Counted from the stretch's first letter, positions 2,383-2,686 are shown. The stretch is DNA of 64,000 nt from Candidatus Omnitrophota bacterium (GCA_003598025.1 QZKH01000002.1:138133-202132), one strand, 5' to 3'. Notes: generated from the letters alone by a model not told the origin. Numbers and translations are program-made.

Positions 2383-2406
2383 AGCTGTTTATTAAGGAGG
2401 TGGCAT

Positions 2407-2547
2407 ATGATGACAAGAAAAGATGGTTGTATGGTGTGCGGCTTTCAAGAGATTGATATTGGTTGCGGGTGTTTATATGCTCCCGTACTATGTTGTACCA
2501 GCAGGGCAAAAAGGAAAATAGCCCATAGAAAGAACAGACGTTCTTAA
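2407..2547 (+). CDS. Hypothetical Cys-rich small peptide (46 aa)
   Basis: Not in the ORF track. Strong RBS TAAGGAGGTGG 4 nt upstream. Translation MMTRKDGCMVCGFQEIDIGCGCLYAPVLCCTSRAKRKIAHRKNRRS has 7 Cys and a basic tail. Confidence 0.3.
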   Translation: MMTRKDGCMVCGFQEIDIGCGCLYAPVLCCTSRAKRKIAHRKNRRS

Positions 2548-2620
2548 AGAATTGCTTTTATTGTTTGAGAAGTGGTATAATAAAGGCGCTTGCAGATAAA
2601 AGCTAAGGAGGAGGTGGTTT

Positions 2621-2671
2621 ATGAGTTGCGGTAAATGTAAACCCAGAAAGAAAGCTAAGAAGAAGAAATAA
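2621..2671 (+). CDS. Hypothetical micro-ORF (16 aa) MSCGKCKPRKKAKKKK
   Basis: Strong RBS AAGGAGGAGGTGG upstream. CxxC plus a poly-Lys tail. In the same frame as the downstream tpx ORF, separated by a single TAA. Confidence 0.25.
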   Translation: MSCGKCKPRKKAKKKK

Positions 2672-2686
2672 GAAGAGAAGGATATT

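Follow-up and report, generated by a model that had tools for sequence, protein, structure and literature searches.

Two micro-ORFs and their ribosome-binding sites

We have analysed a stretch of 64,000 nucleotides (nt), here called the window and numbered from its first letter, taken from the 1.69-Mb metagenome-assembled genome of a Candidatus Omnitrophota bacterium (GCA_003598025.1, QZKH01000002.1:138133-202132). Two tandem micro-open reading frames (micro-ORFs), named sORF1 and sORF2, are located between the gene for a rhodanese with a Cys-rich tail (upstream) and the gene tpx (downstream), which specifies a fusion of a thiol peroxidase with a pterin-4a-carbinolamine dehydratase domain (Tpx-PCD). 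The arrangement had first been noticed in the bare sequence (the original prediction); it is confirmed in the sequence and in the list of ORFs. The features of the locus are given in Table 1. The sORF1 peptide has six cysteines (positions 8, 11, 20, 22, 29 and 30), not seven as was counted at first. As was also stated, sORF2 and tpx share the same frame, the start of sORF2 being 111 nt upstream of the tpx ATG in the source genome; however, the gap of 15 nt described between them applies to a mechanically called ORF that starts with the TTG at 2687. Homologues of the tpx product align from the ATG at 2732, so that the real gap is 60 nt.

Table 1. Features of the locus in their order along the window. 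SD, Shine-Dalgarno sequence; aa, amino acids; pN/pS, ratio of nonsynonymous to synonymous change. The related strain is introduced in the text.
Feature	Position	Strand	Evidence and remarks
Extracytoplasmic function (ECF) sigma factor fused to a ZAS (zf-HC2) anti-sigma domain (sigma-ZAS)	1164..1958	+	Pfam Sigma70_r2, Sigma70_r4_2 and zf-HC2; first gene of the row
Single-domain rhodanese	2011..2382	+	Pfam PF00581, E 9.8e-18; tail …SCQACSAC; active-site loop CASFEC with two invariant Cys
SD of sORF1, TAAGGAGGTGG	2393..2403	+	Sequence reading; no listed change in the related strain
sORF1, 46 aa, Cys-rich, polybasic His-containing tail	2407..2547	+	Homologues, pN/pS, AlphaFold2
Promoter-like site (putative)	2552..2581	+	-35 TTGCTT (2552-2557), extended -10 TGGTATAAT (2573-2581)
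SD of sORF2, TAAGGAGGAGGTGG	2604..2617	+	Sequence reading, 16S rRNA complementarity
sORF2, 16 aa, CxxC and poly-Lys, MSCGKCKPRKKAKKKK	2621..2671	+	ORF list, SD, related strain
RNA hairpin (predicted), ~15 bp	2683..2720	+	Folding compared with shuffles; G2695A in the related strain
29-codon out-of-frame ORF across the tpx start	2700..2789	+	ORF list; probably not a gene
Tpx-PCD fusion gene (tpx)	2732..3586	+	Pfam, NCBIfam; without an SD, A-rich leader

In both micro-ORFs, 6 nt separate the end of the GGAGG core from the ATG. The 16S rRNA of the source genome has the 3′ end ...GGAUCACCUCCUUUCU, to which the SD of sORF1 (AAGGAGGTG) is a perfect complement over 9 nt and that of sORF2 (AGGAGGTG) over 8 nt. 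Counted on both strands of the genome, TAAGGAGGTG occurs twice, AAGGAGGTG 20 times and AGGAGGTG 40 times. AGGAGG by itself is unspecific: 449 of its 787 genomic sites have no start codon nearby. The combination of GGAGG and an ATG at a spacing of 4 to 10 nt, counted in the regions outside ORFs of at least 100 aa, was found at 165 sites, 109 of which start ORFs of at least 100 aa, while 42 start ORFs of 30–99 aa (mostly known small proteins: rubredoxins, acyl carrier protein, cold-shock protein, ferredoxin) and 14 start ORFs of less than 30 aa. sORF2 itself, counted twice, accounts for two entries in this last group. Because ORFs of at least 30 aa are started at 151 of the 165 sites, both micro-ORFs bear top-tier initiation signals, which almost always mark genes in the source genome. 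Amongst its 1464 long ORFs, 216 have a GGAGG core near the start, and around half are without any SD-like site. The strong ribosome sites reported for the two micro-ORFs are thus real, and both ORFs are good candidates for translation.

The sORF1 family and its rhodanese partner

When 234 genomes of the order were searched in six frames, matches to sORF1 emerged in the same bacterial family, with E-values down to 5e-8; on inspection, each proved to be an ORF of ~45 aa with a strong SD, directly after the gene of a homologous rhodanese. Two further families of the same class were reached with a phylum-wide profile search. HMMER, run exhaustively over 1.84 billion representative proteins, added two homologues (P0003 and P0004), and 24 matches were obtained by hmmsearch of rhodanese-anchored loci from genomes and metagenomes. 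The profile of alignment A3 (13 members), searched against 5.8 billion proteins, returned only entries annotated as “hypothetical protein” of Omnitrophota-type metagenome-assembled genomes (MAGs), without a Pfam domain. In all, alignment A4 holds 23 distinct homologues, every one of them from Omnitrophota-type MAGs or metagenome contigs. C30 is invariant in A4, C8 and P26 are near-invariant, and nearly all the tails are strongly basic and include a His; C11 is present in 10 and C29 in nine of the 13 members of A3. sORF1 matches the A3 profile and has the N-terminal Cys, P26, C30 and the basic tail of the family, as well as the slot after a Cys-tailed rhodanese. sORF2 has no match to the profile of this family.

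Screening sORF1 and the A4 sequences with Pfam and NCBIfam gave no family match, a word-indexed protein search with sORF1 alone retrieved only sORF1 itself, and a search of the literature on rhodanese, small Cys-rich proteins and anti-sigma factors in Omnitrophota found nothing relevant. At the sequence level, the sORF1 family is thus new, being unnamed and undescribed in the libraries and literature searched. It falls within a broad known kind, the small Cys-rich cytoplasmic proteins, yet without a detectable relative there.

A related strain is represented by a contig from a rock metagenome, ~95% identical to the window over 2267-2958, with 35 differences. Nine of the nucleotide changes affect sORF1; they comprise six synonymous codons plus the substitutions Y24C and K37R. 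As pN/pS is between 0.1 and 0.3 in five pairs of homologues and the changes in the related strain are mostly synonymous, sORF1 is under purifying selection. We have hardly any doubt that sORF1 is genuine and belongs to the rhodanese operon. The check proposed with the original prediction, i.e., conservation of both frames with a bias towards synonymous substitution, comes out positive for sORF1; for sORF2, we found no homologue by sequence.

The sORF1-type ORF is located 23-163 nt downstream of the gene for a Cys-tailed rhodanese in nearly all loci. Directly upstream of the rhodanese and the peptide, a homologue of sigma-ZAS (33-46% identity) is present in 17 of the 18 lineages that are informative, i.e., with enough flanking sequence. 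Gene order across these lineages indicates that sORF1 is the last gene of a conserved row, consisting of the sigma-ZAS fusion, the Cys-tailed rhodanese and the peptide. All the rhodaneses beside sORF1-type genes have Cys-rich tails, and C65, C70, C117 and C120 are invariant in their alignment (A2); the Cys-rich tail that had been pointed out in the window's rhodanese is thus real, and it is conserved (C117 and C120). In one genome (G111), the sORF1-type gene is followed by that of a protein with a desulforedoxin domain (PF06397, 24.8 bits) and a KKKK tail.

Outside the phylum, ~30 rhodaneses with Cys tails (…CGCG, for example) were inspected, and there is no ORF of the sORF1 type downstream of them. 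Single-domain rhodaneses ending in …C-G-C-(G/N) or …CGCC were observed at loci L086-L128 (Streptomyces, Poribacteria, Rhodocyclales, Chloroflexi and others), in no case with a Cys/basic micro-ORF behind them; judging from these sequences, rhodaneses with a short C-terminal Cys tail look like a widespread and apparently unnamed subtype that spans phyla. At three other loci (L058, L143 and L144), from another lineage, an unrelated Cys-rich ORF of 46 aa (…GGDECGCDYCCG…) with basic ends and no Pfam match occurs 58 nt after a Cys-tailed rhodanese.

AlphaFold2, run on A4, models sORF1 as one long beta-hairpin with strands 8-17 and 22-30 and a disordered tail (mean pLDDT confidence 74 overall and ~91 over residues 11-30). 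Read from the strand register of this model, C8/C11 and C29/C30 would come together at the open end of the hairpin. A Foldseek search of the model against the PDB gave nothing below E 4.9, the hairpin being too small to inform, and against the ESM Atlas the best score was 0.85, under the useful range. The prediction of a complex between the rhodanese (A2) and the peptide (A4) scored 0.02, which is no answer and counts as evidence neither way.

sORF2 and the leader of tpx

Homologues of Tpx-PCD (50-62% identity, aligned from residue 1) occur in 25 of 41 genomes of the order, the source genome included, and the usual position of the gene in the relatives is directly after a rubredoxin gene. In 19 relatives from other genera, the genes upstream of Tpx-PCD are different ones, often rubredoxin, and Cys-rich sORFs are absent there. 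The connection originally drawn between the micro-ORFs and tpx is not supported; sORF1 has the rhodanese and sigma-ZAS for partners instead. In the interpretation that we favour below, neither ORF is a tpx-specific device, and tpx would simply have come to lie beside the module in the source genome. It had also been suggested that the TAA between sORF2 and tpx might be read through or be polymorphic. In the related strain, the TAA is unchanged, and 4 nt are missing from the A-tract at 2723-2727; a read-through fusion is refuted because this deletion puts sORF2 and tpx out of frame.

No change is listed for the related strain across 2608-2671, that is, over the SD core GAGGAGGTGG (2608-2617) and the whole of sORF2. 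The flanks vary, with five changes in 2548-2620 (positions 2602, 2604 and 2607 amongst those that vary) and four in 2672-2695. At the local non-coding rate (~0.068 per nt), an invariant block of this extent has by our own calculation a P of ~0.01-0.03, which points to constraint on the block and not to the nature of that constraint.

We have searched for ORFs resembling sORF2, defined as SD-preceded, 10-35 aa long, with at least two Cys and at least 35% Lys/Arg. The source genome has only two, sORF2 and one other. Only three were found in 836 kb of fetched loci, both strands included, and these (at loci L140, L146 and L158) all begin 23-26 nt after a Cys-tailed rhodanese. The ORF of L140 (27 aa) ends in ECQC and has a Tpx-PCD gene 14 nt downstream; that of L146 (18 aa) ends in KCKC, and the next gene is Hsp20-like; that of L158 (27 aa) ends in KCDRC. 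With these three ORFs and the KKKK-tailed protein of G111, a design of few Cys and a polycationic stretch near a Cys-tailed rhodanese recurs where the sequence does not. The initiation signal, the invariance in the related strain and the recurrence of such ORFs are three indirect arguments for a function of sORF2. It is probably translated; with less assurance, we think that its peptide matters.

Outside the window, contig C3 of G000 (~107374-107475, plus strand) carries an ORF of 33 aa (MPCGKKRKRRKIRTHKRKK…) that is extremely basic and is preceded by GGAGG. It shares the M-x-C-G-K start with sORF2, without homology at the DNA level, and resembles the class of the tiny ribosomal protein bS22 (“AURKAIP1-COX24”). 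We considered sORF2 as a recent copy of the 33-aa polybasic MPCGKK… gene of the genome and discarded the idea; the local DNA alignment consists of low-complexity similarity only.

In the promoter-like site between sORF1 and sORF2, the extended -10 element is perfect (TGGTATAAT) and the -35 weak; the spacer is 18 nt when TGG is counted, or 15 nt from TTGCTT to TGG. Outside long ORFs, the motif TGNTATAAT shows a 2.3-fold enrichment (36 of its 147 sites, against 10.4% of the sequence), and no change is listed across 2539-2584 in the related strain. A promoter scan passed over the site at 2552-2581 because its -35 matches at only three of six positions. The site is no more than suggestive; it would imply a separate tpx transcript with sORF2 as its first ORF. 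A 17-nt identity between the -10 region and a site on contig C3, inside a coding region, was taken as chance.

The predicted hairpin between sORF2 and tpx has a folding energy of -16.5 kcal/mol (z = -3.83), and none of 200 shuffled sequences was as stable. Its 5′ arm, which begins 12 nt after the sORF2 stop codon, holds the SD-like GAGGAGG, its loop holds the ATG at 2700, and its 3′ arm, which is anti-SD-like (CUCCUCC…GGAAUA), ends 12 nt before the tpx ATG. The related strain carries G2695A, by which a G-U pair of the hairpin becomes an A-U pair and the SD of the 29-codon ORF at 2700, situated inside the stem, is weakened. As the change preserves the pairing and weakens the SD, it appears to be the structure that is kept, and not the ORF. 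Neither the leader nor the hairpin is a dispersed repeat, the genome having no second copy. The tpx leader as a whole folds no better than shuffles (z = -1.14). No terminator-like site was found on the plus strand of 1800-4200, the hairpin being followed by an A-run and not by a U-run, and a scan of 1900-3000 with Rfam 15 gave 25 bits at best (E 0.26) for a threshold of 80. An attenuator with a trpL-type leader peptide was rejected, as neither an intrinsic terminator nor a competing antiterminator pairing was found.

These elements invite another explanation of sORF2, by which its translation, as a leader ORF on the tpx mRNA, would matter and its peptide would not. Transcription from a promoter between the two micro-ORFs would begin near 2588 and yield a leader of ~145 nt; ribosomes engaged at the strong SD, and perhaps slowed over the Lys codons, would disrupt the hairpin and so couple tpx to translation of sORF2. 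The extended -10, the significant hairpin maintained through the change from G-U to A-U, the missing SD of tpx and the invariance of the SD and sORF2 at the nucleotide level, synonymous sites included, are all consistent with this. With known translated leader ORFs (upstream ORFs), sORF2 shares its shortness, its strong SD, its place in a 5′ leader and a following hairpin that reaches the next initiation region. Unlike them, sORF2 comes without a terminator, without an alternative pairing and without identifiable conserved regulatory codons. Nor does the entire leader stand out for its structure. With around half of the genes in this genome lacking an SD-like site, tpx needs no special device, and the tpx genes of the 19 relatives have no such leader. 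At L140, moreover, the tpx gene that follows the micro-ORF has its own GGAG and no hairpin, whereas the micro-ORF at L146 precedes an Hsp20-like gene and not tpx. We consider a leader function possible, if rather unlikely.

Interpretation and nearest known proteins

By a narrow measure, we favour the interpretation that both ORFs specify translated microproteins of a lineage-specific class, which accompany a Cys-tailed rhodanese in a thiol/oxidative-stress module under control of sigma-ZAS. The class would consist of cytoplasmic microproteins that combine few cysteines with a polycationic tail. In sORF1, the open end of the hairpin would gather C8, C11, C29 and C30, with the basic His-containing tail behind it; in the next slot, sORF2, with a promoter-like site of its own and an equally strong SD, would offer a minimal form of the same design, CxxC followed by poly-Lys. 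Context and composition suggest that the paired or clustered Cys form either a redox-active dithiol or a site for metal or sulfane sulfur, which could exchange sulfur or reducing equivalents with the catalytic Cys and the Cys tail of the rhodanese, and that the cationic tail may hold the peptide on an anionic partner (nucleic acid, the ribosome or a membrane). From the earlier proposal of metal- or thiol-binding peptides, the conserved Cys-rich and basic character of sORF1 stands; the binding role itself stays the best functional guess.

A number of points weigh against this interpretation. We found no sequence homologue of sORF2: a degenerate DNA pattern of its first eight codons, searched in the 234 genomes of the order, gave one chance match with one mismatch. 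If sORF2 is coding, zero changes in its 51 nt, with ~7 synonymous sites, have a P of ~0.2, so that the invariance is no proof of coding; four of the 35 differences in the contig of the related strain are unlisted and could in principle lie anywhere, although the differences listed seem to be preferentially those distant from the ends of the contig. The look-alikes at L140, L146 and L158 have composition and position in common with sORF2, only, and carry their Cys at the opposite end. Purines abound in the region around sORF2, and such a composition alone is enough to produce Lys, Arg and Glu codons and SD-like strings. As for sORF1, the four-Cys pattern is present in only ~60-75% of the family members, which weakens the model of a fixed metal centre. 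There are no matches to known families (Pfam, NCBIfam, solved structures), and the function is read from context.

Some of these points would equally suit a chance frame in a purine-rich spacer, whose SD-like repeats are standby ribosome sites at most, or have no role. sORF2 counts only 16 codons, the sequence from 2600 to 2700 is strongly purine-rich, the 234 genomes provided no homologue, and a majority of the genomic AGGAGG sites (449 of 787) have no start codon nearby. We nevertheless find this explanation unlikely: orphan combinations of GGAGG and ATG outside long ORFs are rare (14 of 165), the sORF2 block is invariant in the related strain with variable sequence on both flanks, and ORFs of its kind, extremely rare as they are, recur after the same rhodanese in other genera.

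A different proposal concerns the chemistry of sORF1 and does not compete with the two alternatives for sORF2: sORF1 could be an Fe(Cys)4 carrier of the desulforedoxin or rubredoxin type that feeds the peroxidase or the neighbouring one-iron superoxide reductase (SOR), which is encoded downstream in the window and, according to Pfam, is without a desulforedoxin domain of its own. The desulforedoxin domain (PF06397, the N-terminal domain of desulfoferrodoxin) is likewise a very small cytoplasmic protein, occurring in the oxygen-defence clusters of anaerobes, and has a CxxCG knuckle and an adjacent CC pair on a fold rich in beta-hairpins; CxxCG[YF]…CC in sORF1 recalls its C-x2-C-x15-C-C, and the sORF1-type gene of G111 adjoins that of a genuine PF06397 protein, poly-Lys-tailed. 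The consensus MKxxxCxxCG[YF] similarly resembles rubredoxin (MxKYxCxxCGY), genes for which are found in the same islands. However, none of 25 A4 sequences matches PF06397 at E <= 10, for which the G111 neighbour (24.8 bits) was the positive control, nor does any family member match a rubredoxin model: against solved rubredoxins, the sORF1 profile reached a sub-threshold E of 0.52 at best over positions 1-13 only, corresponding to the N-terminal knuckle, and the second knuckle (CPxCG) is absent. Near-invariance is limited to C8 and C30 among the four Cys, as a quarter to a third of the members lack C11 and C29; the C11-C29 spacing is 17 and not 15, a polybasic His-containing tail is added, and the conserved neighbour of the family is the rhodanese and not SOR. 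We give little credence to an Fe(Cys)4 centre. That the peptides are precursors of ribosomally synthesised and post-translationally modified peptides (RiPPs), as was also put forward and as their small size, Cys content and strong ribosome sites might suggest, is very improbable, with no radical-SAM, YcaO, lanthipeptide or other maturase gene beside any of the family loci inspected, no match to SCIFF or another NCBIfam precursor model at E <= 10, no leader/core organisation, and sigma factor, rhodanese, Tpx-PCD and SOR genes for neighbours.

The interpretation as rhodanese-associated microproteins has analogies in two known systems. The partners in sulfur relay (TusA, carriers of the ThiS/MoaD type and acceptors of rhodanese persulfide) may be compared with sORF1 as a small protein encoded directly after a rhodanese, with conserved Cys to which sulfane sulfur could be passed; sORF1 has, however, neither sequence nor predicted-fold similarity to TusA or the ubiquitin-like carriers, from which it also differs by its polycationic tail, and its context is a stress-sigma operon and not a pathway for cofactors or tRNA thiolation. 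RsrA/SigR of Streptomyces offers, by analogy, a regulator with a ZAS domain whose gene is accompanied by those of thiol-active proteins able, potentially, to reset it. In contrast, sigma factor and ZAS domain are here united in one polypeptide, and the co-encoded proteins are a rhodanese and microproteins instead of thioredoxin.

As new observations, the conserved three-gene row and the recurring combination of Cys with a polybasic stretch are of moderate interest. Proteins of less than 50 aa systematically escape annotation or remain “hypothetical”, and the comparative evidence identifies sORF1 as a selected gene with a fixed partner. Together, the sigma-ZAS fusion, the Cys-tailed rhodanese and the Cys/polybasic microprotein form a compact module in a phylum without a cultured model for such work. 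If the peptides accept sulfur or electrons from the rhodanese, they would provide a function for a widespread and unexplained subtype of Cys-tailed rhodaneses and show a layout of thiol-stress defence in strict anaerobes with tiny genomes. With sORF2, the question whether a micro-ORF behind a perfect SD acts through its peptide or as a regulatory device can be put to a concrete test. More speculatively, and in our opinion improbably, Omnitrophota could have a set of polycationic thiol microproteins that includes the sORF1 family, mini-peptides of the sORF2 type and poly-Lys-tailed desulforedoxin domains; the tails would concentrate a reactive Cys pair or a metal/sulfane-sulfur centre on nucleic acids or ribosomes, with charging or recycling by the Cys-tailed rhodanese and switching by a one-polypeptide sigma/anti-sigma thiol sensor. 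Such a set would be an antioxidant or persulfide-delivery system that is genetically encoded and targeted to surfaces.

Domains of the desulforedoxin type (CxxC…CC) with poly-Lys/Arg tails at the N or C terminus were observed in several oxygen-defence clusters of Omnitrophota. One such domain, encoded at L028:1318-1467 (minus strand), was checked with Pfam (PF06397); two further ORFs, of 59 aa (L037) and 54 aa (L203), were assigned by motif alone. On contig C1 of G000, outside the window, a Lys-rich ORF of 49 aa with two terminal CC pairs (…SCCS…KCCS) and a strong SD occurs on the minus strand near 111378.

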